From assembly GCA_008632985.1 (NCBI GenBank), contig QPGO01000276.1, positions 1-64,000 on the forward strand: a stretch of DNA of 64,000 nt. The letters run 5' to 3'. The notes under the pieces are model-generated. The model made no database searches. It saw nothing but the letters and a program-made list of their open reading frames with translations, and was not told where the DNA came from. How positions within the stretch are numbered: the first letter of the stretch is position 1; each line of letters starts with the position of its first letter. This DNA is from Psammoneis japonica (lineage: Eukaryota). The translations under genes and the position numbers were made by a program. Below, one piece after another: positions 18,296-64,000 of this stretch.

Positions 18296-18395
18296 CAGAT
18301 TCCCTCAAGAGCACACAACATGTCTCACTGGCCTTGTCAAAGCCTTTCATGAAATGATGCGGAGAAGAAGCGATTCTCTTTGAGGACCTGCGTTA

Positions 18396-30900: not shown

Positions 30901-31074
30901 ACTAAAATCGCTCTGATGCGTCCGCTTCTGGCGTGTGCATGCTTGGCTTTTGCTCGTTTTGATGGAGCCTTTGCGTTTCTGGGATTGAGTGCCCATGTTT
31001 CTAAAGAAAGGATGCAGCTGCCACTCTTCAGCCACTTTTGTTGGAGCAGATTCTTCCGTTGTGTCCGTCATCAT
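27976..31074 (-). mobile_element. Degenerate DNA-transposon transposase-like gene (DUF6729-like/Mutator-clan DDE)
   Basis: Frameshifted ORFs 30022-31074, 28849-29763 and 28286-28894 carry CxxC motifs, VASDHTFQILKN, LGLFHWMHRI and SKLEKAHNSLAHHGNCGM. Family assignment is from motif recollection; no TIRs found. Confidence 0.5.
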
Positions 31075-31762: not shown

Positions 31763-31888
31763 CCTGGCAAAGAAACAAAAAACCTGTGACAGCCCATTTC
31801 CAAATTGTCTTGTGCACATGGCGCAAGCTGAAGCTCTGGCAAAGAAACAAAAACCTTGCAACAGCCCATTTCCAAAATGTCTTGTGCA
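31763..31888 (+). repeat. Direct repeat of ~55 bp x2
   Basis: ctggcaaagaaacaaaaa..cagcccatttccaaa.tgtcttgtgcaca twice; the copies differ by gTGac versus gCAac. Confidence 0.85.
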
Positions 31889-35526: not shown

Positions 35527-36161
35527 GGTTCTTGCGTGGATGTGAATGAAAAAGAAACTTATAAAGCGTCAACGCTCTATGCGCTGCACAACATGTTCGT
35601 TGCCTGTTGATGCCTGTTGCTGTTGCCGCTCCGAGCTTGTAGCGCTATTTTAGCAGCAGGAACAGCTCGTATTTAGAGCTCGAAATGACAGTGATCGATC
35701 GCAAACAGGATTGTGATCTACAACCAATGATTCGTGCGGTCTGTTCGTCCCCCGTACTTTTAAAGCTTTCGCGCCAAATTTGCCTTGTAGAATCCAGTAC
35801 ACTTCCGGCATAGCGTAGAATCCATCCCACTGCAGGATATGCCAGAGCACGAGACCTTCGACGAGAAGGCACTACATCCCAACATAACACCGCACACCGC
35901 CCATTTGCGGCCCATGACACAAACAACAGCGCCGTTGCTTTCAGCCTTTTCCTACCAATCACTACCGTTTCTCCCTCTGATTCATCGCTAAAGTAACATT
36001 ATGTGAGTTATTGTGGTGTCTTATGCGGTGTTACAGACGCTTACGACGGAGCGGATGCATTCTTATAATATAATAATCGAATCACTCTGGTGGCATGGTT
36101 TTAGCTGTATCTCATCTCACACGCAACTTACTTTTTCTTTTTGTTCACCAGAACTGACACC

Positions 36162-38216
36162 ATGTCGTTAACTCATCGAGCGATACTCACCATGAAGCAA
36201 GCCTTGCAGGGGGCTTCGTCCGATCCAGCATTTCAGCCCGTTGTGCAAATGATTCAAATCAAAGCCGTCACGGCAAACAATGGTGCTGGTGGAGAGCGTT
36301 TTCGTGTACGTATGAAACTACTTTAGAAATGCTGTGCATGCTATTATAAGTTTCCTCGAATCGATTGTAAACTGAATTATTCTTGTTCTGATGACTCTTA
36401 TAGGTGATTCTATCGACGGAGAACACTTTATTCAGGGCATGCTTGCTACACAGTTGAATGAACTGGTGCACTCGAATCAACTCAAGGAGAACGCTCTGTT
36501 GCAGGTGGAGGACTTTATGAACAACCAGATTCAAGGCCGTACCGTAATCATTTTGTTGCGTGTGCATGTCTTGCCCTCGTCTCCGTTGGAGCGTTTGGGA
36601 AGCCCCGTAGATGTCGAAAAGGCTGGCATTCCTGCCGCTCCAGCGGCAGCACCTGCGGCTGCTCCCATGTACAATCGTACCAACAACCAGTACAGCAGTG
36701 CTCCGCCTGCGGCTGCTGCTGCCAAACCGCAAAACAGCTACAACAATAACCCCTATGGTGGCGGCGGTGGCGGTGGTAATAACCCCTACGGAGGAGGAGG
36801 AGCAGGAAATTCGTACGGCAGTCATGCTCAAGACACGGGTCGCTTTGGTGGTTCGATTGCTCGCGATTCTACCGCGGGAAGCACACCCATTACTCCCATT
36901 TCCCAGCTCAACATGTATCAAAACAAGTGGACCATTCGAGCTCGCCTCACCTCAAAGTCCGACATTCGCACCTGGAGCAACGCCAAGGGCGAGGGTTCGC
37001 TCTTTTCCATTGAGCTCTTGGACAGTTCTGGCATGGACATTCGTGCCACCTTTTTCAAGGAAGCCGTGGACAAGTTTTACCACATGTTGGAAGTCAACAA
37101 GGTTTACACGCTTTCGGGAGGGCGACTCAAGGTGGCCAATGTCCAGTAGAACACGTGCAAGTCGAGTTTTGAAATCACCTTTGATCAGAACTCGGAAATC
37201 CATCTGGACAACGATACGGGTGATATTCAAGAACAGATTTATGAGTTTGTCAGGATTGCCGATATCGAAAACACCCAAGCCAACACCAATGTCGACGTGT
37301 TGGCGGTTGTCAAGAACGTCAGCGAACCCGCCACGCTCATTAGCAAAAAGTCGGGACAGAAACTCATCAAGTGTGATTTGACGCTGGTGGACGATTCCGC
37401 TACGGAAATCAACCTGACCGTTTGGGGCGAACAGGCCCGCCGGGCGCCTTCGGAATTTGAAGGCACGCCGGTGGCGGCCTTTCGGCGTGTGCGGGTCTCG
37501 GATTATGGTGGCAAGAGTCTCTCGTCGGGATCGAGTGGTGTGCAGGTCAATCCGCGGCTACCGGAAACGGCACGCCTTTTGCAGTGGTGGCAGAGCGGCG
37601 GTGCCTCGTCGGCGCGGTCCTTGTCCACCGCGACGGGAGGAGGTGGCCGTATGGATGCCTTTGCCGACCGCAAGACGATTAGTTCCATCAAGGAGAACAC
37701 TTGGGGAATTCGGAAAAGCCCGATTGGATCAGTTTCAAGGGAACCATCAACTTTCTCAAAAAGGACAAGGAGGGTGGTGCGTGGTACACGGCGTGCGCCA
37801 ATGCTGGTGAGCCTTGCAAGAACCGTTTCAAGGTGACGCAAACCACGGATGGAAATTGGTTTTGTGACAAGTGCCAGGGTACCTTTGATCATTGTGTCCG
37901 GCGTTGGATCTTTTCGGGAACCATCAATGATGACACGAGTACCACGTGGGTGTCCTTTTCAATGAGCAGGCTGAAACGCTCTTTCAGGGCGCCACGGCGG
38001 ATGACGTGTACAAGAAAACCATGGACGAGGACAGAACCAGGATCTCTAGGACTCTTACTTTGCTCGGGCGGTTGGCACGGATTGGGTGTTCAATGCAAGG
38101 TCAAGCAAGAAAATGTTGGAGACGAAATGCGAACCAAGACGAGTGTTGTCGCCATGCAGCCTGTAGATTATGCCAAGGAGCGCAAAGAAATGCTTGCGGC
38201 TATTGCTCAGTTTTAA
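36162..38216 (+). CDS. RPA1: Replication protein A 70-kDa subunit, disrupted as assembled
   Basis: ITPISQLNMYQNKWTIRARLTSKSDIRTWSNAKGEGSLFS, RVSDYGGKSLS and WYTAC..C..WFCDKC. Intron 36306-36403. Frameshifts near 36413, 37698, 37957 and 38040-38100; in-frame TAG at 37147-37149. Confidence 0.9.
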
Positions 38217-38765
38217 GTTCAAGACGCACAGTAAGCAATGTGACCAAGAGAATGATTCGTAAAGTTGGGTTTGAACAAGCGTCTTCTGCGGGGAATTGTT
38301 ATAACATGAAGTAAAAATTATTTGTGAGTTCTTTTCTTCCTCCAACTAGCTCCAATGTCGCTCGAATATTCCTCTTGTAGGAACAGCCGAAATGCTTCAG
38401 CTTCAGAATCCGGCAAAGACTTTCGATGGTTGCCGAGGGTTCTTGGGTGCTGCTGTTCACGCAAGATTCGTGCTGCATCAGGTGTTGCAGAAACTCCTTG
38501 TCCTCTGAGGACATGAGTGACTCATCCAGCTTCTTGATTTTTTGGCTGAGATACATGGCTCTTTTCTCGCTTGCGCTTCTTCGATTTATTTCTCTGCTTC
38601 TGTGATGTGGCACTTTTCTTCATCTGAGATTTGGCATGTGATTGACAATGAGATTTCAGTGCACTGCTGGGTTTGACACACAAAAGCAGCCAATGTGTCC
38701 ACAAGTCCTGTGTTTCCAGCCCACCGGATCTCACATGAACCTCAACTCTCGTTCAGCGGTCCACT
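37978..38765 (+). repeat. Segmental duplication, copy A (RPA1 3' end plus 3' end of a convergent gene)
   Basis: Colinear with about 43812-44656, e.g. ttgctcagttttaagttcaag and ttgcagaaactccttgtcctctgaggacatgagtgactc. Confidence 0.9.
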
Positions 38766-40520
38766 TTCTGGCAACACTTGGAGAGTCAATGGGCAGGGGC
38801 AACCGCAGTGCACCATGGAGGAGATCCTGCATGGCAACATCAAAGGAGGCTGACACTGCCAGTGCTGCAGGTTGTCACAAGCTTTCCAAAGAAAGTTGTG
38901 GTGCCAGTCTTGGCACCAATGATCACATTGGTGACAGCATCAGTGCAGTCAACAACGAGGGGGCGGTGCAGTCAATGAAGCAGCCACAAGAATGCAGTGG
39001 CTGACCAATGTGAAGTTGGTGCAGATGGTCATGTCAGAAACAGAATCTCAACCAATGGTGTGGATGATGCAATCAATGAAGCCAGAAGCAGCCACAGTGC
39101 AACAGCTGATTGTAAGATCAAGGTGGTGCACATGATCAGGTTTTGGCAGCAGCAACACAGTCAATGGCACAAACAGTGCTGCAGTCAATGAACTAGAAGT
39201 GGCCCCAGCCCCAGTGATGAGCAGTGCAAAAGATTGCTGGAAAAGGCTTTTGTCTCAGGGAAGAAGAAATGGAGCATCTGCTGAGAGGCAGCAGCATCGG
39301 TGCTGAGCTCTCAGACTCACACATCACTCAATGTGACGTTGACAGTGGCACAAACAGCTTCATGAGAAGCACTCCTCTTGTGACAAAATAAAATCAAAAG
39401 CAGCCCTTGCGTGCAAGAACATTCACAAAGTGCGCACTCTGGCAATTTGTCAGAATGACAAATGCTTGTCTGAAGCAAAAAAAGTCAAAGTTGTCACTGT
39501 GGTGCTGAAACTTGCACACAGAAAACCACACTTGACATCTTCATTGTGCCAGGAGTTGGAGCTAGCCTGGGGCAAAGAGAACAGCTGTTGTCAGCAGTGA
39601 TTCCAACAGGCTTCAAAAAGACACATGTGCAAGTGTGCGGCTGCAAGCCTTTTGACTCGACCACCCCTTGCAAGCCCACCTCATGGATCCAAGCCATTTG
39701 GAGTTGCCGACACGTGCTGACCAGCAAATTTGCTGCCAGCGCAGACAAGCAGACAGCCTCAAATGCAGCTGTGACAGAATCAGCAAATGGCAGGCAACAC
39801 ATCTGAGTGCCAGAGCCTCTGCCAACAAGTTGAGACAGCAGAAAAAAGGCACTGGCTGAAGGGCGCAGCAGCATTTCTTGCAAAGGTCAGAGACACAAAA
39901 TGAAAAACAGCACCTGGCACAGCAGCACACTGTGCTGCACTGGCAGAGAACTGGGCAGCCTTTGGGAAGATGCCACGTGGGTGCAACCATGCTGGAGATG
40001 ACCTCAGAGCAGCAGGCTCTGATGCTGCAAAGCAAAAATGGAAGAGGGACTTTGGGTCAGGGGCAACAGTGCTGGTGCCAACCCTGAGTCTCTCCAGCTT
40101 GGCAACAACAGCTTTGAGAACCCACAGTTTAAAAAAAAATCCACAGTTGCTTGTCGCACTTAGAGCAGAGGGCAGTTGCCACTGCCAATGTGCCACCTCT
40201 AGGCTGCTCCAGCATTGCAGACTGTCACCACGTGCTCTCCACTGCTGCCAACTGGGGTGCAGCACCCATGTCAATGCTGCCGACCACCACAATGCCACCA
40301 GCCACAAAGTTCCAGACATGATGCCGCCGAATGCACAAAATGCAGCCGACTGCAAGGCCGCTTGCGCTTGTCTCCGACGCGACAGTGAGCGACGCCACAT
40401 GGCGCCGACTGCGGCTCAACGCTGGTCTTTCGCAGACGAGTGAGCATGGCATGCAGGCAGCAAAAATAATGTCCATGCGTGCGTCGCACTGGCAGAGTGC
40501 CAATGGCAGACAGAGCGGCA
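38400..40520. other. TpA/CpG-depleted domain 4, unidentified degenerate insertion
   Basis: TA nearly absent. Homology to the 44-kb copy stops at about 38765. No recognisable protein. Confidence 0.7.
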
Positions 40521-42940: not shown

Positions 42941-43811
42941 GTGTTTTTTTCAGCATTGCATGACAGCGCACCGTGCAGTCCTCGAAGAGAAACACACTGT
43001 CCGAAGAAAGCACTGTGCGTTTGGCGACATTGTAGCTTTTGAAGCTAAAAAAGAGGCACAGAGACACTTTCAAACTTCGTCGCGTCCATCGGTCCAAGCA
43101 CCTGCCAGCAGGGCCAAGTGTCTTGAACAAAGCCACCGACAAAGCTGCAAAATTTAGTGGCTGACAGCTTTGACTGAGGAGACGGCGTCACCAGTCCATT
43201 GCTGCAGCAAAATGGAAAAAATTCTCTCAGTTTACTCACGTGTGTTGGTGCCAACACCATCATTTTGCTCAGGAGGCTCAAGTGTGTCCATGGAGAGTTT
43301 TGGCAGGAACGACAGCGCACACCGTGCCACAGTCTTGAAGAAATGTTTGTGCGCCAGAGGGGCAGCACAATTTGATTGGGGGGCAATTTAAAAATGTGGG
43401 CCCATCTCTCATTTTTCCACGCAGGTTTTGGGTTCATTGCATTTTGGCTTCTGTCGCATTCAATGGGGGCAGTCACACCAGCTTGGCTCACCCACAGTGC
43501 AGGCCCTATGTCTGAAATGCGGGTCAATGACTTTGCCCCGATTTTCGCTGTTGCGGGTCTGTTGTTTGTTCCTGCCTTCCCCCCCTCTCCCCAGTCTGTC
43601 CATTGTCATGTTTCCATTTTCTCACCTCCATTTTAAATTGTTGGCAAATGTCAAATTAAACAGCTGTCTGTTGCCATGCGTTTGCACACCACAAATCCAG
43701 GTTTTCGACTTCTTCCTTGCTGTCTTCCTCTGTCTGCATCTGATTGCCCTCTCCTTCTTGGTTCTCTTCTTTGCTGTCCATGCGTTGCTTGAACCAAACT
43801 TTGTCGCATGT

Positions 43812-44036
43812 GCTCTTTCAGGGTGCCTTGGTGGACGAGGCACACAAGAAAGCCATGGACAAGAACAGAGCCAGGGCAGCTTTGACTCACACTTTTTGCT
43901 TGGGCGGTTGGCATGGATTGGATGCTCAAGTGAGAGACAAAATGCAAACCAAGACAAGTGTTGTCGCTGTGCTGTGACCTGCAGATCATGCCAAGGAGGG
44001 GGCAAAGAAATGCTTGAAGCTGTTGCTCAGTTTTAA
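43812..44036 (+). pseudogene. RPA1: RPA1 3' fragment (duplication copy B), hypermutated
   Basis: Encodes DKMQTKTSVVAV..KEMLEAVAQF versus DEMRTKTSVVAM..KEMLAAIAQF in copy A. Confidence 0.85.
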
Positions 44037-44223
44037 GTTCAAGGCGTGCAGTCAGCAATGTGACCAAGAGAACAATTTGTAAAGTTGAGTTTGAAAAAGC
44101 ATCTTCTGCGGGGAAGTGAAATAAAACACGAAGTCAAAATGCATGCAAGAAATCTTTTCTTCCTCCAACTAGCTCCAGAGGGCTTGTCAATTTATTTCAT
44201 CTGCATGTGCACTGTCAAACACA

Positions 44224-45750
44224 TCATTCAACGTCGCTCGAAAATTCCTCTTGCAGGAACAGCCAAAATGTTTCATCTTCAGAATCCGGTGAGGGTTTTT
44301 CGGTGGTTGCCAAGGGTTCTTGGGTCGTGCTGCTGTCCATGCAAGATTCGTGCTGCATCAGGCATTGCAGAAACTCCTTGTCCTCTGAGGACATGAGTGA
44401 CTCGTCCAGCTCCTTTACTTCATTTGGCTGAAATAAAAGTGAACAGCTTTTTTTCTCGCTTTTGCTTCTTTGACTTGTTTTTCTGCTTCTTTGGCATGGC
44501 ACGTTTCTTCATCTGAGATTTGGCATGTGATTGACAATGAGTTTTCAGTGCACTGCTGCTTTTTGACACACGAAAGCAGCCAATGCATCCACAGGTCCTG
44601 TGCTTCCAGCCCACTGAATTGCGCATGAACCTCAATTCTCGTTCAGCAGTCCACTTGCGCTCAAACAAGGCCTTCCAATCTGCCTTTGATGCCTCAACAG
44701 CCCTGGATCATCTCTCACAAGGCCAAATCATTTGTTGCGCAAATTTCTCCACATGACAGGATCCTTCGAGAGTTCATTCCATGCCTTGCAGATGCCGCTC
44801 ATTCAAACAAGCTGTTTGCATCCCAAGAAGGAAAAAAGTGGTGAAGGACATTGCCGTGGAGACAGTCTCTGACAGGAACATCGACAATGCGCTCATCTTT
44901 TTGTTTGGTTGTTGGAGGCACATTGCGTTGAATGTTTGGCTGATCTGCGCTGTCATCCTTCTCTTCCAATCATTTCAAAGAAGTGAGCAAGCATTTGTGA
45001 CCTGTGCAAGGGCCCATTTGTTCATGAGCACTCCGCAGACCAATCAATTTGGGAAATGGCCAGTTTGTCCCACTGCGAATCGTCAGAACACTTTCACTCC
45101 CACCAGCCACCGCACTCAGCTCCGCAGATGATTCTGCCGAGACATTGTCATTGTCATGAATGGCATCAAAAAAGCTCAAAATGCCTGAAAGCTGCAAGGC
45201 GTGACCAATTTCATCCAACTCGTCTTGGCTCATTCCGTGCAAAAGCCACATGTCAGGAGAATCGCAGAGAATGGACAGCTGCCCAATGAATTCCTTGAAC
45301 AGCCCCTTGTCTCAAGAAATGTTGGAAAACACGTCTCGTCAATGACAAAGAATGTACGAAAGGCATCAAAGCAACGGTCTCATCAACTCATCTTCACACA
45401 TCCTTTTGGCATCATCATCAACCATCTGATTGTTTTCACCTTTCTGCAGCTCCCCACAGGAGACAGCAAGAGCGCGCTTTCTCAAGGGCTGAAGTGACTT
45501 CCAGAGCATTGCTGGGTTGTCAAAGAAACTGCACTTGGCAAGTGGCTCAGAATTCATGCGCAACACAAGCTCTGCATTGGAAATGCCGGCTTTTCCCAGT
45601 TTGTCAGATTTCGAACACGATGCGCAACACAACCAGATGCGATTCATGAGCAAGTCACAGCCTTCCGTTCCAAGTGTGTCGGCAAACAACACTGATGACA
45701 GCCAGAGAGCCGTGCGCAATTCTAGAGTTGCTTCGCTGATTAAGGGGGGT
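44224..45750 (-). pseudogene. Unidentified degenerate gene convergent with the RPA1 fragment
   Basis: Chain of minus-strand ORFs (45366-45719, 44774-44956, 44420-44668, 44224-44502). Its 3' part is duplicated at 38.3-38.77 kb (LDESLMSSEDKEFLQ). Confidence 0.4.
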
Positions 45751-46189
45751 CATTTGCTGCTTTTTTTAGCTCGAATTCGACCGAATGGCTTGTGATTTGC
45801 ATGATTTTTCCTGATTTTCACCGTGCTTCACCGTGGTGAAAACAACAAGCCATGAGTTTGTGACGGAGGTGGTCTGTCTATCAACTCTCGTTTGTTTTAT
45901 GTTCGTTGTGTGTCAAAGGTCATGCATGCATCAAATGTTTGTGGATGGACCACTGCATTTTTGAGCTGTGTTGACATTGCCGTCATCGTCGTGCTTCGAT
46001 CACGGTGCCTGATGTTCTCATTTCATGCGCGATCGGGGGTGAATCTAGTGCATCGCAAACTTTCTGAGTGCACTCTTGCATCCACTCGTGCCTCTCTGGA
46101 GTCCTCAACTCTTCTCACGCACCTCAACACCGCTCGTCTTGGTGATGGCACCTGGAAAGGCTCCACCCATGCCTTCACACTTCATTGGC

Positions 46190-46899
46190 AGGACCAACTT
46201 TGCAAGCACGAAGCTCTCATTCCAGACACGGACCGCTTCTCTGGTCAGAAACGTGTCATGCTCAAAAACACCATTCACCCTGTTGAAGAACTCCATTCGG
46301 TCAAGAATCAGGCAGACCAGTTTCATGTGCAGAATGGCACTGGCCTCTCATGCGAGCAATGCTGTGGGCTCCTGCTTTCTGCAGTGGCACAGTGCAACAG
46401 TGCATTCACCCCCAAGACGGTCCCACGCGCTCCGCGTCATGCCATCTGCGAACATGACCTGGCCCCCGACAACCCTGATGACGATGTGTTCTTCGACATT
46501 GACAGTGATGTTGATGTCATCCAAGCTCATGCCACACAGACTTGAAGGACCAACTTTGCAAGTGTGAAGCTCTCATTCCGGACATGGACCGCTTCTCTGA
46601 TGGTCAGAAATGCGTCATGCTCGAAAACGCCATTCACCCTGTTGAAGAACTCCATTCGGTCAAGAATCAGGCAGACCAGTTTTGTGCGCAGAATGGCACC
46701 AACCTCTCATGCGAGCAATGCTGTGGGCTCCTGCTTTCTGCAGTGCCACAGCGCAACAGTGCGTTCACCCCCAAGATGGCTTCCTGCACTCTGCATCGCG
46801 CCATCCATGAACATGACCTGGCTCCCACAGACCCTGATGACAATGTGTTCTTTGACATGGACAGTGATGTTGATGTCATCCAAGCTTGTGCTGCACAGA
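46190..46899 (+). repeat. ~357-bp tandem duplication in gag
   Basis: aggaccaactttgcaag...catccaagct at about 46190-46540 and 46547-46899. Confidence 0.9.
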
Positions 46900-47844
46900 C
46901 TCGTGACAACTCCCTCACCAGGGAACAATGGCGTTGCATTCCACCGGACCATCAGCGCATCTGGGATGCTCTGCCTCAGTCCACCAAAGCCATCATCCTT
47001 GGATCACGCACTGCTCATGCTGGCAACCACCATGACTCAACGGCCATCAATTTGCATGACCTCCATCTTGGCAGTGATGGCGACGTCAACTTGTCGGCCA
47101 ATGCTCACAACCTTGAGCCAGCCCCCGCAGCTTCCAACGTCGCAGCTGATCTGGCCGATGCTAATCCCATCCTGGCTCACCTCACCAAATGCAAGCCTTT
47201 GCCTCCCGGTGATCTGCAGCGGCTCCTTGCACCTGAACGGCCCTCTTTGGCTTGCTCTGGTGAGAAACCTCCCGGGTCTGCGTCTTCCCGCAACACAGAC
47301 ACTGACATTGAGATCAACGGTCACACTCACCGTCGTGTCAACAATCACAATGTCATCTGTTCCACCTTGACTCACAAATCGACTTGCAAGGTTGCTCTCA
47401 TTGATTGCAGCACAAACGGAGGCATTGCCGGCAAAGATGTTTGCGTCATTGCCTGCACTGATCATCAAGTTGATGCACAGGGTGTCGACAACCATCAGCT
47501 TGTCAACATTCCCATTGTCACTGTGGGCGGTGTCATCCACACCCAACATGGACCCATCATTGCCATCCTCCACCAGCGCGCCTGCACTGGCAAAGGCAAG
47601 ACCATTCACTCATGTGGCCAGCTCGAGTGGCACAAGCACGACGTCAATGATTGGTCCATCAAGGTCCCCAACGGCCTGCAGCGCATCACCACCATCAATG
47701 GTTGCATCATTCCCATCAACATCAAAGGCAGCTTGCCCTGCATTGCCATGCACCCGCACACTGACGCCAAATGGGACAACTTGCCACATGTCATCCTCAC
47801 TGGCGATGACACCTGGGATCCATCTGCACTTGACCACCAGTTCA

Positions 47845-48002
47845 CTGATGACAACACCTGGTGCGATGCCATCTCTGACCTCCAGGATGACCCTGCCACC
47901 ACTCTCTTTGATGAGTTTGGCAACTGATGACAACACCTGGTGCGATGCCATCTCTGACCTCCAGGATGACCCTGCCACCACTCTCTTTGACAAGTTTGGC
48001 AA
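47845..48002 (+). repeat. 79-bp tandem duplication inside the copia element
   Basis: Units start at 47845 and 47924 and are identical except gaTGag versus gaCAag. Confidence 0.95.
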
Positions 48003-51000
48003 CTGTTGTCATTGCCATGTCGTGAACAACGCAATGCTTGTGGACCACCTGCTTGACGACCACATCCTGCCGACATCTGATTTCTTCTACAAGTGCCATG
48101 AACGTGACATCCAGCCACAGGACCCTGACTGCAAGTCATTGCGTCCTCACTTTGGCTTCCTCCTGAAGGACACCATCCACCGCACGTTCGATTGCATGAC
48201 CCAGCATGCCTGCATGCCAGTCAGCATGCACTTGAAAAAGGCATGCAAGTCACCCAACCCAGTGCTCAACGTCCATTGCTGCAACAAACCTGTTGCCACT
48301 GACACAGTCCACTCTGACACTCCTGCAATTGATCCCGCATGCATCAGAGCACAGTTCTTTGTTGGCACCGAATCTCTCGTCACCAATGTGCATGGCACCA
48401 AGACCAACAAAGAATTTGTCAACACCCTTGAAGACAACATTTGCAACTCCACAGTGCTCTGTCCAAACTCATCAGCGATTGTGCCCAAGTCGAAATCAGC
48501 AACAAGGTGCTTGGCATTCTCCCCGCCCTCTTCATCTCCAGTTGGCAAAGCCAGCCTCATCAACAGCACCAGAACTTCACTGAACATTGCTGCCAAACCA
48601 TCAAGAACATGGCCAACATCATCATGGATTGCTTCAGCTCACCGGCTTGCACATGGCTTGTTGCCCTCATGTGCGTGTGTTTTCTGCTGAATCACACCAC
48701 CTCTGCCAAGCTCCACTGGCGCACCCCAACTGATGTGCTGACCAGATCTGCTCCCAACATCAGCCCCCTCCTCCATTTTCACTGGTGGGAACCGGTGTGC
48801 TGCCATTTGGACGACTCCGACTGGCCCTCCGAATCCCGTGAACTGCGTGGTCACTTCGTTGGCATCGCTGAACACGTTGGCCACCACATGACCTTCAAGA
48901 TTCTTTCCAACGACACCCAGAAGATTCTTCACTGGTCAAATGTACGTTCTGCTGCCAGCACGCCCTCAAAGTGCAACTTGTGTCTTGATCCTCCTGATGG
49001 GGAGACTGCTGCACCCATCATCAAATCCCGCCATGACTCTGAAGATCCACCAAATTCATCAGATGGGGAGAAGATCAGGATGCCCAAGATGCCAGTCTTC
49101 AACCCCGAGGACATCATTGGATGCACCTTCCTCATGAAGCCACAAGAAGATGGACAGCACTGCCAAGCTTGCATCGTCAAAGCTGTCGAAGACCACAACT
49201 GGGAGATTGGCGACAACCCAGAGCTCATCCAGTTCATCTGCTCCGTCAACAACAACAAGTGTGAAGAAGTCCTTGCCTGCAACTGCATCATCAACCACAC
49301 AGAGCAAGGGGAAGATGACACCACTGTGTGGAAATTTTGACGCATCGCATTGCATGAAGGACCATTGAGGCCTCACGACCCCTCATGGAAAGGCTCAAGC
49401 TACAATGCAGTGCTCAAGTGGGAAAGTGGGGAGATCATGTCTGAGCCCCTGGCCATCATTGCCAAGGACAACCCTGCAACCTGCGCCATCTGCAAACATG
49501 AACATGGCCTTCTCAAAACCAATGGATGGAAGTGCTTCCAGAAGACAGCTCTCTGTGCCAGAAGAAGCTCTTTTGCATGGCCAACCAAGCCAAGCTTTGC
49601 TCCTTTCATGTGGCCCCACGTCACAAGTGCGGATGCGAAGTGCCCCGTGACTGCAGGCACACTTTTGCTCTTGACAAGTGCAATTGCAACCGCAAGTGGG
49701 GAGATGCAACAGACCTTGAGATGAATCAACTCAACAAATGTGAGGTCTTCCACAACTGTGGGCACTGCAAGGAATCCAGTGCGCCACCCAGACACAAGAA
49801 GATCCGCGTGCACCTGGTGTGCGATGTCAAACATGATGGCAGACACAAGGCTCGCCTTGTTGCCAATGGGCATCTCACCAACACACCCATTGACAGTGTG
49901 TGCTCTGGTGCAGTGTCTCTGTGTGGCCTCCAAATGATGATCTTCCTGGCTGAACTCAACAAGCCAGAGACATGGGCCACCAACATTGGCGATGCCCATT
50001 TGGAAGCTGCGACCAAGGAGAAGCCACACATTGGCCTTTGCCATGAAGGACCCACAGACCTTCGTTGACACTCTCATGGAGAAGCACAAGTTCAAGCTAA
50101 AAGGCACTGGCCCTCTGCAGTTTCACCTTGGCTGTGACTTCTGCTGTGACTCTGACAGCACACTTTGCACGGCCCCTCGCAAGTGCATCAAACGCATGGT
50201 TGAGAATCATGCACAACTGTTTGGGGAGAAGCCTTGCACCAATGCATTGTCACCACTCGAGAAAGGAGACCATCCCAAGCTGGACACCTCCGAACTGTCA
50301 GAACCCAAAGGTGTTCAACACTTCCAGTCTCTCATTGGGTCTTTGCAGTGGGCCGCATCCCTTGGGCGCATTGACATCACCACAGCCATCATGTCCCCAT
50401 CCAGCTTCCATGCCGCACCCCGTCAAGGCCATTTGGACCGTGCCAAGCGTGTCTGCAGTTTCCTGTCTAAGATGCGACATGGTGTCTCATGAGTGCACAC
50501 CAAGGAACCCGACTGTTTGGACCTTCCCAAGCCTGTGCACGGCAATGTGAAGGAACTGATCCTAGAAGACGCACCTCAGCCCCTTGGCAAATTCATCACC
50601 ACCACACATTGTGTTGATGCGAACTTGTTTCACTGCATGCTCACTGAGCACTCTGTCACGGGCATCCTTCACATCCTCAACAAGTTCCCGGCTGACTGGT
50701 TCTCCAAGAAACAAGCTGCGGTTGAGACCGCAACTTGTGGGTCTGAATTTGTTGCCACCAGGACTTGTGCAGAGCAAATCATTGATCTGCACACCACGCT
50801 GCATCACCTTGGGGTTCCGATTCATGACCAATGTCACATGTTCAGGGACAACAAGTCAGTTGTTGACAGCACCACCATCCCGCACTCCAAGTTACACAAG
50901 CGACACACCACCCTCTTGTTCCACCGTGTGTGTGAGGTGATTGCCTCCAGTTTCCTCAGGTTCCACTTTGTCAAAGGTTCTTGCAACCCCACTGACGTCC

Positions 51001-51411
51001 TCAGCAAACACTGGGGATGCTCCCAGATTTGGAACCTCCTTGGCCCTCTAATGTTTTGGAACTTTGATTCCGAGGCCTTCAGTGATTCTGACTTTGAATC
51101 GGTTGCTGTGGACTCTTCAAGCAAACTGGGGAGTGACAGAATTTGAACAAGATTTTAGTTTGTCACACACAATCATGTGTGCTCTTAGTTCTGCGTGCAG
51201 TGCGCAATGCAGTTTGCTTTTGAGCCACTTGGCTCACAAGAATGATGACAGCAGCACCGATGTCACAACAACAGTCTTTCGGCTCCTGCAATGGTCTCTG
51301 CATGGAGACTCATCTGCCATTTAGACAGCAGCAAGGAGTCATTGTTTTCTTCCACCCAGTCATCTTTAATTTCTGTCAGATTGCAAGGGGCCGGGAGCAG
51401 TTTGTTGGCAT

Positions 51412-51413
<2 letters not shown>

Positions 51414-51446
<33 letters not shown>
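51414..51446 (+). repeat. (CT)n microsatellite
   Basis: Directly visible. Confidence 0.9.
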
Positions 51447-51449
<3 letters not shown>

Positions 51450-52034
51450 AAAAGGGTGTGTGTTGGCTAGATGTTGCTTCTTTCTCAAAAACTGCACCAT
51501 GTGGAAAAGAAGTGAGGAGTCTGTGTCAATGTTTGGTCCATTCTACATGAGGTGGGTGTCCACCTTTCATGGTGTTGTGACTGGGACAGATGAAATGTTG
51601 CTTGGAAGGGCCTGGGTGTGTGTGGATGGATGGGTGGATGGATGGGTTTGCAATTTACAAAGTTCAGAGCACAAGGAGCAAAGTGACACAATTGTCAAGT
51701 GAACGGTGCTTGCTGGCTTCAATTGACAGCCACACCCTCAAGGTGAGACCCCAGATGGGACTCTGATGCATGTTGAAAACTCCTGGTTGTGGCACATGGC
51801 CACAGAGCTCTGCAGTGTGTGAGCAGCTGCTCAATGCATGGGGAGCATGCGGGCAGCAGCTGGGTCAAGCTCAGCAAAGTGCGCCCCAAATGGTGTGGAG
51901 TGTGCATGCATTTTTCTCTCCAGCTCTGCATTTTTTAGCTCTTTCACAATTCCACTTTCCCCACCCAACAATGAAATTGACTGTTTCTTCAAATGCAAAC
52001 ACCCCGCCTTGAGAGGAGCTTGTCTGGATCTGCC

Positions 52035-53250
52035 TCACTTCCATGGCAGAGCCTGTAGAATCTGGGCGGTTCCAATGCACAGCAAATCCCCGTCGCCAAA
52101 CTCATCTGTGATTGTAAAGGAACAGAGGGTGCCTGGAATGGTGGACACTGTAAAGGTGCACAACTCACCAGCATTGGCAATGGTCCAAGGAAAAATGTCC
52201 ACCAAGACGCTGCCATTGCACACCAGACAAAAACCCATTTTGGAAGGAACAGCATCCAACATGATTTCACCACAAACAGTGTGGGCATTGGATGTGGCGA
52301 TGCTGGTTTGAGCATTGGACGGGAGATCTCCATGGTGGGTGCTGCTGAGCCGCAATCCACACAAGCCATGGTTGATGCGGTCGGGCTTGACGTGGTTGGC
52401 ATCATGGCGGGAGACCTTGTTGGCGACTCTGTCCATGGTGCCTCTGCAATGAAATCAACCACTTGTTCTTTGGCAAATGTTCCATTTCCACGAATCAAAG
52501 AATTGCCTGGACGAGAACAATTTGTGCCACAATGAACATGACAAAAACTGCCAGCATCCATTCTGTCTTGGCCCATGTCAGAAAAGGCAAAGGTGCAGGC
52601 CAGCCCGGCCTGTGCGGAAAGCGGCGCTGTGACCAAATGATTTGGCAATCCCCGACAGACTCTGGCGGGAACATTGGCAATGTTTGTTCCCTTGCAGTCC
52701 AGTTTCCATCCAGTCTCTTGTGGTTTGCTGTCCAACTGAATCACCACTGAAAGCAACTCGCAGCTTGTCGGTGCCATGGTTGTTGTCGGCATTGGAGATG
52801 GAACTGGGGAAGTTGACGTAGCTGCAGTTGGAGTGGCAGCTTTTGTTCCTGCTGCTGAGTCATTGTTGCTGCTTTTCATGGTCATTGGAACCACGACACC
52901 AATCGCAATGCCGGCCACAAGCAGTGCAATGAGAAGAATCCCCAAATGACACTTCCAGGGCTTGATCGGGACTGCATCTTCTGCACACAGAAGATTCTTG
53001 TTTTCATCTTCCTCTGGAGAGACAATGCAAGCTTCTAGAATCACATCATGCCCATTGGAGTGTCCACAATTGTCCCCATTTGCAAGCTGTGGTGCAGTTG
53101 ATGACTCTGGTCATGTGACTGAATGCTTGGAACTGCCGGGCTCTGTAATGCGCGCAACCCCCGGGAGAGATGATGCTTGTTCCTTTTGGCTTTTTTTGCT
53201 TTCTGCTGTTCAAATCAACAACAACATGACCTGCTGCTGCTCGATTCTTG
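52035..53250 (-). pseudogene. Single-pass membrane protein with Pro/Thr stalk and two extracellular repeats, hypermutated
   Basis: TM segment LGILLIALLVAGIAIGVVV. Two repeats: IQLDSKPQETGW..CTFAFSDMGQD and IMLDAVPSKMGF..CSFTITDEFGDG. Frameshifted; 5' end uncertain. Confidence 0.55.
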
Positions 53251-53549
53251 CAGCTTTCATTGTCTTTTTGCCTCATTGAATCGACTGCAAGACAAAGGTG
53301 TCTTTTGTTGTGCAGCAGCATCTTCTTGAGCAGAGGATTCTGAGCTCGTTGGAGGGAGAGGCGACTCTTTGGGCTCCATGATGTCTGCTTCCACAATGAC
53401 GCGTCAGCAATTTTGTGGTCAGACAAAAATTCTTTTGTTGCAAAAAGAGAACAGCAACAGCCAAGAAGTGACTTTCAGGGTGTCATGTCATGCTTTGAAA
53501 TTTTTAGTTTTTGATCACAAACCAGGAAAGCCCATGTGCAGAAATGGAG

Positions 53550-54800
53550 TTGAGGGGGGGAGCAGCAAGAGGTTGCATGGGATGGGCTCTGCGAGAGCAG
53601 GAGGAAAAAAGGGGCTTGCGTGACAGCATGAGGGATGAAGAGAAGAAGGAGTGAGGAGAGTCGGAGATGGGAGGGAGGAAAGGAAGTGGAATGATGGACA
53701 ATGTTGCAGGCAAGGGTTTGGACAGCCCATTGAGAAGGGGTGGCAGAGCAACAGGTGCTGCCAAAGCGGTCGGAAGCAAGCTGGCACCAAGCAAAGTGTC
53801 AGAGGCTGGAAAGAGGGCGGAAGGAGAAGTGAGAGCACAGGAGAAGGCATCGAAGGATGCAGGGGAATGAAGGAAGGAGGAAGGGTCAGGCCAGGGAGCT
53901 TTGGGCTGGGTGCAGAAGGATGAGGATGAGGAGCCAAAGAGAAAGCAATGAAAGAAGAAACCAAGGCTGCCAAGATGGTCAAGGGCAAAAGGAAGGAGAA
54001 AGCCTCCAGCAGCGTTGAGGGCTTGGACAGCAAGGGGACCATCGGAGGTGCAAGAAGAAGGGCCCAAAAACTTGGATCTTGCACTCGCATGGTGTGCCTC
54101 AGCAAGGACAGGAGAAGAAGGGGTGGGCAGGCCAGGAGGAGGGCAGGGGGGGAACTTTTGGAATGGTGACATCAACAGCAATGCATCGATGTTGGGAAGG
54201 AGCAGAGAGGGATGCAGGAGGAGGGATGGCGGTGCCTGCATCAGCTGGGCAAAGGAGAGGCCGATGGGGGGGGGAGGTTGGTGGGCTTGAGATGAACGTC
54301 ATGAGAAGAATGACAGAACTTGGAAAGAGGAGCAAGGGTGTGCGCGACAATGAAGAGAGTGTCGCGGATGCTGTTGGAAAGCTTGGACTTGTGATTGCCC
54401 TTGCAAGCAAAGGCATGATCACCGAAGGCATCTAAAGCAGCATGGCCGCAGGAACAAGGAGAACCAACAAGGGAGGAAGGGATGACAGGGAGGCGAAGCT
54501 TGCGTTGAACAGCCACAGTGTACGCATCGGAGGCAAGGCGCGAGGTGGGAAGCGCCGAGAAAGAGCATGAAGCGAGAGACTGGTGAGAGGCGAAAGGAGG
54601 GAAGGAAGGGCAATTTGAACTTTGGAGGGGGCAGCGGCAAGGGCGGAAGAGAGGATGCGTTGTTGATGAGCATGGTAGAGGCGACGGGCCAGGCCTGTAG
54701 AGCGTGGCGGTCTTGACCAGGGCCGAAAGCGAAGGAGGGGCCGAGGAAGAATCGGAAGAGAGAGCAGAGGCAAAGGAACGGAAGATAGAGTAGAGTCGCC
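53550..54800 (-). mobile_element. 5'-truncated non-LTR retrotransposon with restriction-like endonuclease (CRE/R2-type)
   Basis: QRKLRLP..CSCG..LDAFGDHAFAC..SIRDTL zinc knuckle, then LCPAD..IAVDVT (PD-D/ExK nuclease; family RPAD) and FLLPFALDHLGSLG, across frameshifts. Confidence 0.75.
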
Positions 54801-58079: not shown

Positions 58080-60711
58080 GGCAAAGATTTCATGCTCGTG
58101 GCTGGTTAACGACAAGCCCATGACCCAATCTCTTTGTCTGACTTCGAGCCAAAGTGTTAGTGTAAATCGTTAAGTGTCATTTCCACTTCGACACAAAGAA
58201 AGCTAAATGGTTAGCGTAAATCGTTAAGTGTCATTTCCACTTCGACACAAAGACAGCTAAATGCTTAACGGCAGTGGTCAGATTTCAAAATCTGAGCAAT
58301 ACAGAAATGTCAATGATGAATTAGGATTTTTGATTGCATCTGCCGTAAATGTCATTACGCCAATTGCACTAATGAATACACAAATGAATTTGTATTCCAT
58401 CCTTTTCCTGAACTTTGATCTATCGGCATTTTCGATACGAGTACGCGATGACAACAATAAGGCATGCTTGTGTGTGTCATGGCCATAAGCTGTGAGGCGT
58501 ACCATCACATTTGGATTGAACTCGGGGATCTTGATGTCGAAAGTAGCCATTTGTTTGACATTCGTGATTTTTCATCGCCCACAAACTGGGATTTCAACTG
58601 AGTCGAGTTGATGTTGGACGTGTTTCAAAGCACTGCATTTGATGAAACAATTGAGGGCTCTGGAATTATGGCATTTTATGCCATGGAGACTTAAAACAGT
58701 AAATGGGTTGACAATCAAGCAGTGATCGGGTTTGCCAACATTTCCAAAAATGTGACAACAAAAATTGCATCACTCAACAACCAACAACATCTCAAGAGAT
58801 AGAAACAAGAAAAGTGACTCCTCTTTGCACTTGAATTAAAAGAGACAACAATGCACAACAAACATTTGAGAAGGACAAGAAGCTCTTGAATGCATGGAAC
58901 AAGAAGAGAGTCAATGAATCGCTCTTGCTTCGAACCTCATGACCTGTTCTCTCCATGATGGTGGTTGGCTGAAAGTTTGGTGGTGGTTTTTTATGTGACT
59001 TGCAGCTTGAGGCATGTTGATGCATGAACACATGGCCCATGTGTGGTGTCACCTTTGGAATGTGCCACTTGTGGAGTTTGAGTGGACAACTCTCTGTGCT
59101 CAACCTTTGTCCGCCAAATGCTCCGTCAAAGTCCAGATGCTGCCCCATCCCACCCGACCATTGACACAAAACAGTTCTTGCAAAATGTTGTTGCCTGTTT
59201 CCCTCTTCCTCTGCAGAGCAGCTCTCTTGGTGACAGTGCTGCCCACATACCAGAATGTGCTCAAGAATGCTTTCCATTTTGCCAGCCAAGACACCCAACT
59301 CGGGGCTGTGTGGGCTCGAATCTCTCTCAAGACAAGCTGACATTTGTGCCTGGCACTGGTGGCAACGCTGAGCCCTCCTTCCTGTTTGACTTCCCAGGAG
59401 TGTGCCCAGACCTCCTGCATGCTGGGTGGCTCAACCACAAGAGTTGCTGTCTTTGTTGGTTTTGTCAGCAGGATGTGCCAAGGCTGCTCTGGCCATGTGT
59501 GCACGCCTGGCTGGCACCACAAGTCCCGGTGCAAGGACAGCTCCGACAGCACTTTCTGCTGTCAGCAAAGAGTGTGAGCTGGCTGGACTGCCAAACCCCA
59601 CACTTCACAGCTCCTTGGCAGTCACTCCAAATCAAGTGCCAACTTGGGGTCAACTGCACCTGGCTGGCTGCAATGCAAAGACAGCTGTGGCAGCACTTTG
59701 TGACAAAAAAGAGAGTGTGAGCTGGCTGGGCTCCCAACCCCACACTTCACAGCCCCTCAGCACTGGCTCCCAATCAAATGCCAGCTTGGGGCCAATGGCT
59801 GCAAAGCCATTGTTGCAAATCCCTGTGCCTGCTCCCTCACACAGCTGTGCACAGGGTCAACATGTGTGGCCTTTGCAAGATGGGCCCCTGGCTGGCTGCT
59901 GACTCCTCAGCCACGGCTTGCAACAAGCCACCACAACACAGAGCATTGTGGGGTGAGTGCAGCACAGCTTGAACAAGCAAACCATGCTGAGATCACCCAG
60001 AGTTGGCTGCTGTCCTGGGGCTCCATTCAAAGCTGAGCTGGGCTGCTTGGCTCCTTGGTGTGCAGCACATGCTTGGCATCACATTCTTGTCGCCAAGCAG
60101 CCACATGGCATGTGCCCACCATTTGTGCCTGCAACAGTGACCCCAGCCACAAAGAAGCCAACAAAAAGTTGAACCTGTTTTTGTGGTTGAAGAGTGAAGA
60201 AACAGTGAGCAAAGTTTGGTTCAAGATTTGTTGGCAATGCCAAGTGCTGGGCAACCAAAAAGAGGTGCCAAAAATGGCTGTTCTCACTCATTTCTCAAGA
60301 GGAGCTTGCACTCATGATGCAGGGTCTGAAGCAAGCACCAGTCAAGATGACAGTTTTTTCTCTCTGCTCCACTTAAAACACAGCCTTTGAGTCAATGTGG
60401 TGCTCTTTCAACAACTCACGCACACTGGGAGGAGCAGCTGGAGCCAGGGCAGCTGGCCTGGCAGGGCTTGGATGACACCCAAGCTGGGCTGCTCAGCCTG
60501 GTGGCACACACTCAGCGCCACATTGTTGCCCTCCTGCAGCCCGCAATGTGCCCCACTCTTGGCACCTGCAGCAACCACCCTGGACCAAAAGAAGCCAGCG
60601 CAACTCTGGCCATGGTTGCATGGTCAATTGTGTGTGTGTGTGTGTTCAACGGTTGATTCCCCTCTTTTTTTCTCTTTTCCTTTAACCGGCCACGAACATG
60701 AAAAAATTGCC
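58080..60711. mobile_element. Non-autonomous TIR DNA transposon (2632 bp) with 8-bp TSD, nested in copia gag
   Basis: Left end ggcaaagatttcatgctcgtggctggttaa; right end reverse complement ggcaattttttcatgttcgtggccggttaa. TSD ggacttgc at 58072-58079 and 60712-60719. Removal restores the gag frame (VEAADLPDAE). Confidence 0.9.
58157..58263 (+). repeat. ~53-bp tandem repeat x2 (subterminal in the TIR element)
   Basis: gttag(t/c)gtaaatcgttaagtgtcatttccacttcgacacaaaga.agctaaatg twice. Confidence 0.9.
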
Positions 60712-63700
60712 GGACTTGCCAGATGCTGAAACGGACGTTGTTGATGAAACTGCTGATGACGGAAAGAAGAAGAATGAAGCAAAGAAACGAAATGTGCCGT
60801 TGCAGCAGCAAATTTCACGATGGCGTTTACTGCTGAAGGTCTGATGGGCATTGTGTGTGCTTCTCAGATGACTGAGAGGCCCGGTGGGCTGGCATGGAAA
60901 ACAGTGAAGGCATTGCACGAGATGCACATGCCGCAGGACCTGATTTCGAAGGTCGAGTTGCATCGCGAATTGAACAAAGTGACATTGAAGGACAATGAAG
61001 AACCTGGAAAAATGTTTGAACAGTTGAAAGGGATTGAGAACAAGTTCAGTGCGGCATCACACAAGATTCCTGATGATGAGTTGATTGCCATCACATTTGA
61101 GAAAGCACCCAAAATGTGCAAGTCGGTTGTGACAACTGAACAATGCATCCAAGGCAATGATTTGGAAATGAAACATTTGCAAGAAGCAACGATGCAGTTG
61201 TGGAGGAACACAAGTGGTGGTTCCGAGCAAGAGAGTGCAAATGAAGTGAGTTTGACAGTGACAGAGTCGAGCATCATGTGTTGCAACTGTGGAGAGAAAG
61301 GGCACAAGGCCCATGAGTGCACCAAGCTGAGGAAACCCAAGAAAGGTGGCAGTGGTGGAGAAAAGAAATTTAAAGGAAAGTGCTTCAGCTGTGGTGAGAC
61401 AGGTCACAGGAGCAAGGATTGCTGGATGAATCCTGACAACGCGGACAAGGCTCCAGCATGGTTTAAAGAGAAACAGAAGAAGAGCAATGAGACCGGATTG
61501 TCAAGTGTGGATGCCGGAGCTAAAGTCGAGCTGTTGCTGACAAGCACGGAGACTGTGGAGTTTCCAGCAACTCTGAAATTGTTGGAGTCGGAAGAAGTGT
61601 GGGTGGCAGATTCAGGATCATCAGTTCATTCTTGTGCAAGCATGAGAGGTGCCAAGAATGTTGAGCGAGCAAGTGCTGATGACAAATTGACCATCAGCAA
61701 CAGTGCAGAGGAAGGAGCAAAGTCTGTTGTGGACTCACCTGGTGCCGCATGCAACAAGAATGGATGTGAGCTTGTGGACGCCACTCTGAAGGATGTCAGC
61801 ATTTTGCAACAAGCAACAAGTTCAACCCATTTGGCATTGCCAAGATGCAGATGCAAGGATGGGCACTTGGAGGTGACAAGAATGTGACATGGATTCGCAA
61901 GAATGGTGTCGAGATGAAATTCGACATCAAGATGCACACGAATCGAGGTGTGGCATTCGCAATGCACATGAAACGAGGACAAGGCGAGTTGTCCAACGCA
62001 ATGACACCAAGGAGGCTCAGCATTGAAAGAGCCCATTGTGAGTTGGGACATCCAAATGAAGACAAGACAAGATGCATCACAAAAATGTTGGGTTGGGAAT
62101 TGCTCATGGTGGTTTGGTGCTGTGCGAATCGTGTGTGGTGGGAAAAGCCAAGCAAAAGAATGTGCCACAGGAGAGTGAACACAAACCTGCTCAGGATGCA
62201 GGCAACCAAGCATTTTTGGATGTTGCAAGCATCAAGCAAGTCAAGGATGGTCCCAAGGTCAACTCCAAATGCTGTTGGAGGATTGTGGTTGATGAGCGCA
62301 CGCAGTTGAACCCCATGAACGCCAAGAGGCGATTGGAGAGCTGGCGCACCCTGGAGAAGACATTGCACTGGAAGCAACACCTCAAGAACCCCATGTGGAA
62401 GTCGGGGAGAGCACAGATCAACCAACGGAACATGATGAAAATGAAAATGGTGACAACGAAGAGCCAACGGAGTCTGTTGGCGGGGGAGAGATGAATGAAT
62501 CGGGTGATTCTGCCAATTTTGCACCAAATTTTGTGCCAACGACTCGATCTGGAAGAGCCATGAAACCGCCCAATGGACTCATTGCAGAGATTCAAAATGT
62601 CAAATTGACACCCGCTGAACAGAAATTTTGTGCTCACATGAAAGAACTGAATGTGTTGTCATCATTCTGTGAAGATGGTTTTGATCTGATGATCATGCAT
62701 GGACTGGAGCCAAAAGGACCAGAAGCATCTTTGGTCGGAGCCGGAGTCGGAGCCGGGTTCGACAATGCGGTGGAATTGAAAGTCATGAAGCACAACCAAG
62801 CCATGCAGACTGATGATGTGGAAGAATGGAATGATGCAGTTGAGGAAGAGCATGGCAAATTCCGGAGGTGCAAGGCATGGAAAGAAGTGCCAGCTGATGA
62901 GGTGCCGCACGATGCGAAAATCTTAAGTTCAATGTGGGCCATGAAGAAGAAAGCAGACGGAACCTGTCGTGCAAGGATCAATGCTTGTGGGTTTGAGCAG
63001 ATTGATGGAGAGCACTGCAAAGAAAGTGACAAGTCAGCACCAGTGGTGAATGACATCACAGCATGAATCGCGTTGGTTTTGATTGTTGTGGCGAATTTGT
63101 GGGCCGAGCTGCTGGGCATTCAAGGGGCATTTCTGAATGGAAGATTTGCTGAAGGAGAGAAACTTTGTGTGAAAGTTCCACAAGGATTTGAGAGATTCTA
63201 TCCAGAAAACGATGCATTGTTGTTGTCAAGGACAATTTGTGGATTGAAACAAGCAGCGATGTCATTCTGGTGCAAAACGCAGGAGGCATTCAAGAAGATG
63301 GAACATGCAAGGAGCCAAGCTGATCCCTGCTTGCAGTTCAAGTGGTTCAAGGAAGGATTGGTCATGTGGCTGACATGGGTTGATGATTGCTTGGTGGCAG
63401 GACCAACCAAACAAGTGAAAGAAGTGAAAGATCAGATGAAAGGTCTGTTCAACTGCACCAAGCTAGGAGAATTGAAAGAATGTGTTGGATGCAAGGTTGA
63501 CATTGAAAGAGACAAAGGATGGGCAAAACTTGCACAACCAGTGATGATGCAGAGCCACAAAGACGAGTTTGATTTGGGAGAAGAAACTTGTCCAAGGACT
63601 CCAGCGCCGGGAGGCTCATCACTTGTGAAAGGCAAAGACAAGGAATTAATGGAGCACAAGGATCAAAAGATTCACAGATCTGGAACAGGAAAGTTGCTGC

Positions 63701-64000
63701 ACATGATGAAATGGACAAGACCCGAGATTCTCAATGCAGTGAGAGAGCCATCAAGGCACATGAGTGGTGCTGTGAGAGCTCACATGGCTGCAATGAAGTG
63801 GGTGATGCGATGCTGTGTGAGAACACCGAAGAGAGGATTGTTGTTGAAACCAAATGCCAAGTGGAGCAGAGCCAAGGAGCATGAATTTGTCATTGTGGGC
63901 AAAAGTGATTCAGAGTGTGCAAAAGATCAGGAGACGAGGCACAGTGTGAATGATTGGAGCATGCATCTACACGAGGTGCCCATTTCGATGCGAAGCAAAA
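58700..64000. other. TpA-depleted hypermutated domain 6
   Basis: About nine TA by eye in 60.7-64.0 kb. The 355-aa gag/protease ORF 60820-61887 has no Tyr. Confidence 0.85.

Follow-up and report, generated by a model that had tools for sequence, protein, structure and literature searches.

Knowledge of directed A:T to G:C mutation in chromosomal DNA comes from one 2026 preprint, which concerns a single alga, Bigelowiella natans. Of 231 new mutations that its mutation-accumulation experiment recorded in two integrated viral regions, 230 changed A to G or T to C (Mettrop et al. 2026; bioRxiv 10.64898/2026.01.13.699255). These A:T to G:C mutations all occurred at TpA, on both strands and in chromosomal DNA, and the agent suggested by the authors is an adenine deaminase resembling ADAT2 (bioRxiv 10.64898/2026.01.13.699255). 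A full-text literature search found the TpA signature described solely in this preprint and found no description of it in a diatom. Here we report the same signature, nearly saturating, in transposon DNA of Psammoneis japonica. The window, by which we mean the whole stretch of DNA analysed, comprises 64,000 nucleotides (assembly GCA_008632985.1, contig QPGO01000276.1, positions 1 to 64,000, forward strand), and our main subject within it is a dead copia-like retroelement polyprotein (45856..51143, + strand) with two tandem duplications, the copies of which differ by reciprocal TG/CA swaps. These swaps probably arose from two superimposed transition processes that acted on the chromosomal DNA of a silenced, transposon-rich block.

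Other known systems resemble parts of this pattern. The decay of methylated CpG in silenced transposons turns CG into TG or CA, whichever strand is hit, which at this locus is seen in changes of Arg to Cys or His and in sites where one copy has CG and the other TG or CA. In Neurospora and other fungi, repeat-induced point mutation (RIP) likewise inactivates mobile DNA by dense transitions and hits both copies of a duplicate. RIP converts CpA to TpA and raises TA. Editing by ADAR or APOBEC enzymes is, like the process considered here, a context-dependent deamination that leaves retroelements riddled with transitions. The locus nevertheless departs from each of them. Unlike methyl-CpG decay, it has lost TA and had its Tyr codons converted; unlike RIP, it has had TA erased (0.02–0.11 of expectation), with no triggering by duplication, as a tandem repeat within a gene lies in a block with TA at 0.57; and unlike ADAR or APOBEC editing, which affects one strand of an intermediate, it shows hits on both strands (29:15 and 16:10), differences between tandem copies probably private to one insertion, and an effect on DNA that is not retroelement.

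To describe the setting, we computed observed/expected dinucleotide ratios in 500-bp windows and called a stretch depleted when its TA ratio was below 0.25. Two kinds of block alternate along the window, which looks eukaryotic, and diatom-like, in its genes. Gene blocks have TA ratios of about 0.5 and CG ratios of 0.8–1.05, and contain, as identified with Pfam, RPA1, a PT-repeat gene and genes with HA, BTB and DUF389 domains. The depleted blocks, seven in number and about 37 kb in total (listed coordinates 751–6250, 16501–19500, 23001–32500, 38501–40500, 43001–54750 and 58501–64000), have TA at 0.06–0.11, CG at 0.19–0.65 and TG/CA at 1.5–1.9. The largest, 43001..54750, contains the copia-like element and extends beyond its recognisable polyprotein; its TA ratio is 0.07 and its CG ratio 0.44, and TA drops to 0.02 at 46–48 kb. 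This block has 1158 TG and 1254 CA, and the two counts are about equal in every block of the window, including all seven depleted ones. Because CG depletion varies across the depleted blocks while TA depletion is uniform, TA and CG loss seem to be two processes on separate clocks. Retroelement nature has been demonstrated for only two of the depleted blocks; a Pfam search of 63 open reading frames (ORFs) from depleted blocks returned one marginal RVT_2 and one marginal NUDIX match.

The depletion of TpA is thus local, the depleted stretches being flanked by genes of normal composition, as a process of the B. natans type requires. The changes at this locus, TpA to TpG or CpA, are A:T to G:C transitions as in the Bigelowiella type. 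According to the preprint, the integrated nucleocytoplasmic large DNA virus (NCLDV) and virophage DNA of B. natans shares with our locus the A:T to G:C change at TpA, with TpG or CpA as the product according to which strand is hit, the confinement to foreign or mobile chromosomal stretches, and the long-term outcome of TpA-poor, TpG/CpA-rich clusters. The differences are that the host here is a diatom-like stramenopile, that the targets are retrotransposons and a host-gene fragment, that CpG decay is superimposed, and that our evidence comes from sequence whereas that in B. natans comes from new mutations. In addition, the depletion here is near complete (observed/expected 0.02–0.11), unlike that of the NCLDV region of B. 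natans, for which the preprint gives a TA ratio of 0.45.

The element at 45856..51143 was recognised from protein relatives, tblastn and matches to copia RVT_2. The ORF 46515–47927 (hereafter referred to as P0001) has 57 protein relatives, with E values down to 1.8e-91, one of them attributed by its source to Cylindrotheca; tblastn of these relatives spans 45.9–49.4 kb and 50.5–51.1 kb, and 50043–51143 is matched by copia polyproteins carrying RVT_2. From its N terminus the polyprotein runs through a gag-like part, a stretch resembling a protease (DRGANGG) and a middle part, and at the 3′ end it carries a copia-type reverse transcriptase. Its reading frame is broken by TGA stops and frameshifts and can be traced by comparison with the relatives. 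Pfam found no match in the element's own ORFs, nor in eight of the nine relatives tested, and ‘gag’ is a label by position only. We located no pair of long terminal repeats around the element, and tblastx found no further relative of it elsewhere in the window. Two degenerate-pattern scans of metagenome contigs, built on the swap regions, gave no match. The family is large, as 3971 contigs of run X1 align at >=80%.

Tandem Repeats Finder and self-BLAST detected two duplications in the element, at 46190–46901 (period 359, 87% matches) and at 47844–48005 (period 79, 97% matches). The first duplicates the gag-like part, copy 1 occupying 46190..46542 (+ strand; codon starts at positions mod 3 = 1) and copy 2 46546..46901 (+ strand; frame mod 3 = 0), the latter running on into P0001. 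The second consists of the 79-bp copies 47844..47922 and 47923..48001, also on the + strand, and shifts the frame by +1. In a global alignment the gag-like copies (356/359 bp) differ at 40 of 352 aligned sites, 37 of these differences being transitions. Six are adjacent TG/CA swaps (46207/46563, 46324/46683, 46341/46700, 46447/46806, 46528/46887 and 46533/46892), and they include the KHE/KCE and ICE/IHE differences from which a first-pass annotation had argued for independent hits on the two strands. At 20 further sites one copy has CG and the other TG or CA, the loss falling in one copy at 11 sites and in the other at nine; three sites have CG in both copies, none has TA, and eight differences lie outside the CG/TA swap classes. 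The 79-bp copies differ, as annotated, solely by gaTGag versus gaCAag (47912–13/47991–92). The other two examples named in the annotation were also found: ggTGtt versus ggCAtt, given there as 38482/44362, lies at 38483/44363, and the 31.8-kb repeat (31760–31818 versus 31832–31890) has one swap among its six differences. Ordinary sites differ in 0 of about 75 cases between the 79-bp copies and in 8 of about 290 between the 356-bp copies, which by our own arithmetic is not a significant difference, so that a younger age of the 79-bp duplication is not demonstrable.

The number of swaps was compared with chance by placing equal numbers of transitions and transversions randomly, in 2000 trials per pair. 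The gag-like pair has six swaps against 0.79 expected, and the 38k/44k pair eight against 1.29; none of the 2000 trials reached the observed number in either case. The 79-bp pair (one swap against 0.01 expected, P 0.0065) and the 31.8-kb pair (one against 0.05, P 0.046) also exceeded expectation. For the 35-kb and 59.5-kb pairs there was no significant excess of swaps (P 0.25 and 0.22).

We read the ancestral states at the swap sites from the 57 protein relatives, which have a normal tyrosine content (1.5–5%), while P0001 has no Tyr among its 470 residues. At 46207/46563 (K[H/C]E) the relatives have Tyr in 9/9 and 8/8 cases and at 46447/46806 (I[C/H]E) in 8/11 and 12/17, indicating a TA ancestor at both; at 46528/46887 they are divided between Asn and Tyr, so TA is plausible. 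At 46324/46683 (F[H/C]) the relatives have Lys (11–12), one Arg and one Tyr, and CGT (Arg) is the most plausible ancestor. For the 79-bp swap, 47913/47992 (D[E/K]), they have Glu in 26/40 and 17/27 cases and never Lys, which points to gaC Gag and hence to CG; methyl-CpG decay accounts for this swap. The relatives are uninformative at 46341 and 46533, where the ancestor is undecided. The proposal that every swap descends from TA or CG is therefore supported in the form of a mixture, with Tyr at two to three sites, CG fitting two and two undecided. The opposite possibility, TG or CA as the ancestor, was inferred from the protein relatives at none of the swap sites, Cys or His being the majority residue at none of them. 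At the single differences between CG and TG or CA the polarity is the same, with CG as the ancestral state: where the relatives are informative, the copy retaining CG retains the ancestral residue (Glu 10/12, Ala 10/12, Arg 9/14, Asp 5/13).

The loss of tyrosine extends over the whole element and is selective. Of its 36 Tyr-majority columns only one still has Tyr; 19 have become Cys and 10 His, with Arg, Ser and Phe at two each, whereas other residues are retained (Leu in 60/73, Asp in 60/81 and Asn in 18/22 columns). As an independent test of strand symmetry we used a second copia element, unrelated to the first (60647..63999, + strand; zf-CCHC and RVT_2 by Pfam), and 71 of its 81 relatives. 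Its 20 Tyr-majority columns now have 10 Cys, 5 His, 3 Phe, 1 Tyr and 1 Gln. Since Tyr to Cys corresponds to TA to TG on the sense strand and Tyr to His to TA to CA, both outcomes occur in both elements, at 19:10 and 10:5, without the strong strand bias that would have spoken against hits on either strand. Over the 56 columns together, 29 are TGY, 15 CAY and 2 TAY (Cys:His 29:15 with both elements on the + strand, P 0.049). Conserved Arg behaves similarly: of the 41 Arg-majority columns of the first element 10 remain Arg, and Cys now stands in 15, Trp in one, His in eight and Gln in two, giving a ratio of Cys/Trp to His/Gln of 16:10.

The lean toward TG may be due to sequence context. Where a purine precedes the Tyr codon (R-TA-Y, which is alike on both strands) the Cys:His ratio is 14:10, and where a pyrimidine precedes it the ratio is 15:5, a trend in the predicted direction with no significant difference between the two classes (Fisher P 0.34). 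For this comparison 32 of the 36 columns of the first element were used, the 2 Ser and 2 Phe columns being dropped, and the flanks in the second element were tallied by eye.

Several lines of evidence bear on whether the hits fell on chromosomal DNA. In the duplicated stretch there are five Tyr-majority columns, which in copy 1/copy 2 read H/C, C/C, C/C, C/R and C/H. Loss of TA before duplication would leave zero discordant pairs; two discordant against two concordant columns fits copies that, once duplicated, were hit independently and about equally on the two strands. In run X1, contigs of related copies lack both duplications. Their joints connect 46484 with 46853 (9 intervening letters, net 359), 47842 with 47933 (11 intervening letters, net 79) and 47901 with 47986. 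Because these contigs skip the duplications, and both duplications shift the reading frame, they would most simply be private to this insertion. The same kind of swap also separates the present copy from its relatives, as 46401–46402 is TG in the window and CA in all 15 covering run X1 contigs.

A fragment of a host gene in the same depleted block was affected as well. The apparently intact RPA1 gene (replication factor A large subunit; 36376–38216, + strand; Pfam Rep-A_N, REPA_OB_2 and Rep_fac-A_C) has its 3′ end, with downstream DNA, in a repeat of which copy A lies at 37978..38766 (+ strand). Copy B, aligned to it from 5.8 kb downstream (43812..44656, + strand), is an indel-broken RPA1 3′-end fragment within the depleted block. 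Together they form the 38k/44k pair, in which the annotated swap at 38483/44363 lies. TA in copy A corresponds to TG or CA in copy B at eight sites and the reverse occurs at none; CG in copy A corresponds to TG or CA in copy B at 18 sites and the reverse at six. Among the TA losses, five affect the stretch that is still coding in copy A. The pair supplies the polarity of the change at the DNA level, and it demonstrates that the process also hits host-derived DNA once this is located in a depleted block. Depletion was not restricted to retroelement sequence, because the RPA1 fragment is depleted like its surroundings. The earlier claim that mutation acts on chromosomal DNA accordingly finds support in the contigs without the duplications, in the frame shifts and in the affected host fragment; the hits were probably repeated over time. 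The probably private duplications and the host fragment also lend indirect support to the view that such changes would appear anew from generation to generation.

Duplication per se is not the trigger, because the tandem repeat of the PT-repeat gene (8281–12162, + strand) is not depleted. This gene has about three tandem units of about 1.16 kb with 92–95% identity, and normal TA and CG. Its segments 8281–10973 and 9445–12125, used as a control, are 94.8% identical over 2694 bp and have TA ratios of 0.56–0.59; among their 125 differences 2 are swaps, and 80 lie outside CG/TA sites. A further gene in the window, on the − strand at 34243–35568, encodes three helicase-associated (HA) domains and has an internal 250-bp repeat with 77% identity, in which the differences are mainly outside CG/TA sites.

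The few TA that survive depend on their flanks. By flank, the survivors in the depleted blocks are 16 R-TA-Y, 73 mixed and 101 Y-TA-R, against 249, 510 and 169, respectively, in the gene blocks, a baseline which assumes that the depleted blocks formerly had gene-block composition. ATAT goes from 65 in the gene blocks to 0 in the depleted ones, and TTAA only from 48 to 35; surviving TA is enriched in the TTAA, CTAA/TTAG and CTAG flanks. For most pairs of flanking bases, the TA and CG lost equal the TG and CA gained. Asymmetric flanks are unequal in their gains, T-TA-C for example gaining TG far above CA. The enrichment of Y-TA-R survivors, together with these asymmetric gains, suggests that an adenine is hit preferentially when a pyrimidine lies 3′ of it. 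Applied to the RPA1 pair, the flank rule gave the correct direction at 4 of 7 asymmetric sites. We take a preference for T-A-pyrimidine to resemble the U-A-C setting of the TadA tRNA target and not the preference of ADARs for a 3′ G. A term search of the Bigelowiella preprint found no discussion of the Y-TA-R context.

We propose the following course of events. In a first process, TpA would be changed to TpG or CpA (A:T to G:C), near completely at this locus, by enzymatic deamination of adenine in the T-A context on whichever strand is exposed. In a second, CpG would be changed to TpG or CpA by ordinary deamination of putatively methylated cytosine; this decay is presumably still ongoing, because CG survives at 23 sites of the gag-like pair and TA at none. 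Both target dinucleotides are self-complementary, so whether TG or CA results would depend on the strand hit. After duplication of the 356-bp and 79-bp pieces within this copy of the element, the duplicates would have been hit independently, and a TG/CA swap would mark a site at which one of them took the hit on one strand and its partner on the opposite strand. We infer that the hits were linked to silencing and followed the duplications, and they may have come in bursts or steadily.

Several points weigh against this reading. The ancestry calls rest on proteins that are 30–61% identical; the ancestor is undecided for two of the six swaps of the gag-like pair, and at one of the three sites called TA the relatives are split between Tyr and Asn. 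The 2:1 lean toward TG on the sense strand means that the strands are not strictly equal, and hits on two strands are no proof of a double-stranded substrate. TpA hits alone also leave unexplained the two changes of Tyr to Arg and the Cys/Arg difference at a Tyr column. The Tyr codons at 46752 (pair 46393/46752) and 47577 are now CGC (Arg), each preceded by G; because CGC requires both a T-to-C and an A-to-G change at one TA, extra A-to-G change outside the TpA context would be needed. Finally, the 356-bp copies may have diverged before they were joined, which is impossible for the 79-bp pair, and CpG loss alone would yield a similar number of swaps. By our own arithmetic, a simple two-copy model that starts from about 30 CG and lets each copy lose about 0.55–0.6 of them predicts about five discordant pairs, so that the swap count alone does not require a TpA process.

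As for the chemistry, a hit on the thymine could take the place of adenine deamination: the T in R-T-A would be modified, for example oxidised, and misread or repaired to C, with the same outcome of TA to CA or TG. Whether A or the T paired with it was hit is not visible in the sequence, and the flank preference allows both readings, T-A-Y and R-T-A. As the sole published proposal for the signature is adenine deamination by an ADAT2-like enzyme (bioRxiv 10.64898/2026.01.13.699255), we consider thymine chemistry rather unlikely.

Divergence before joining would mean that the 356-bp ‘duplication’ united two differing members of the family, through unequal recombination or a switch of template. 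In favour of this, identity between the copies is only 87%, eight differences lie outside CG/TA sites, and the family is large. We regard this as unlikely, since it gives no account of the 79-bp pair, identical but for one swap; even if it were so, both lineages would have been hit independently and on opposite strands in chromosomal copies.

If CpG decay were the only process, all swaps would come from methylated CG ancestors, with no TpA process in the duplicates. The 20 sites with CG against TG or CA and the three with CG in both copies agree with this, as do the 79-bp and F[H/C] swaps and the predicted number of discordant pairs, and CpG methylation of transposable elements is known in diatoms (PMC9998398). 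It is quite improbable as the whole explanation, because the relatives have mostly or always Tyr at K[H/C]E and I[C/H]E, and a Tyr codon holds TA and no CG; P0001 is without Tyr, TA is at 0.02 of expectation at 46–48 kb, and the RPA1 fragment has lost eight TA. The proof of a TpA process lies in the tyrosine columns and not in the swap count.

Finally, ADAR- or APOBEC-like changes made on the single-stranded RNA or cDNA of the element and fixed at insertion would suit retrotransposons, the 2:1 lean of both + strand elements to sense-strand A-to-G (29 Cys, 15 His) and the preference of ADARs for U before the edited A, as given in the preprint (bioRxiv 10.64898/2026.01.13.699255), but are very unlikely as the source, given that opposite-strand changes make up 15 of 44 at Tyr and 10 of 26 at Arg, that 29:15 is far from the one-sided pattern expected under such editing, that the differences separate tandem copies absent from related contigs, that the host RPA1 fragment and non-polyprotein DNA are equally depleted, and that TG and CA counts are about equal in all seven depleted blocks.

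What our analysis adds is the split of the swaps into those derived from TA and those derived from CG, the evidence from the RPA1 fragment and from a repeat within a gene that is unaffected, and the dependence of surviving TA on its flanks, which offers a handle toward identifying the enzyme. The duplicates provide a simple internal test, by which the hits appear to have come after copying, fell on either strand and reached beyond retroelement intermediates. Through the split of the swaps, ordinary CpG decay is seen to account for part of the pattern, which should make for a more cautious reading of such swaps elsewhere. We raise the possibility, as a tentative one, that diatoms possess an enzymatic genome defence in which adenine is deaminated in T-A-pyrimidine, on either strand, in silenced chromosomal DNA, and that they share it with Bigelowiella as an old mechanism of the whole SAR supergroup (stramenopiles, alveolates and Rhizaria). 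If this is true, the defence would act time and again, would need no sequence duplication and would outpace CpG decay, its effector might be a TadA/ADAT2-like deaminase, and reciprocal TG/CA differences in young duplicates would be its diagnostic footprint.

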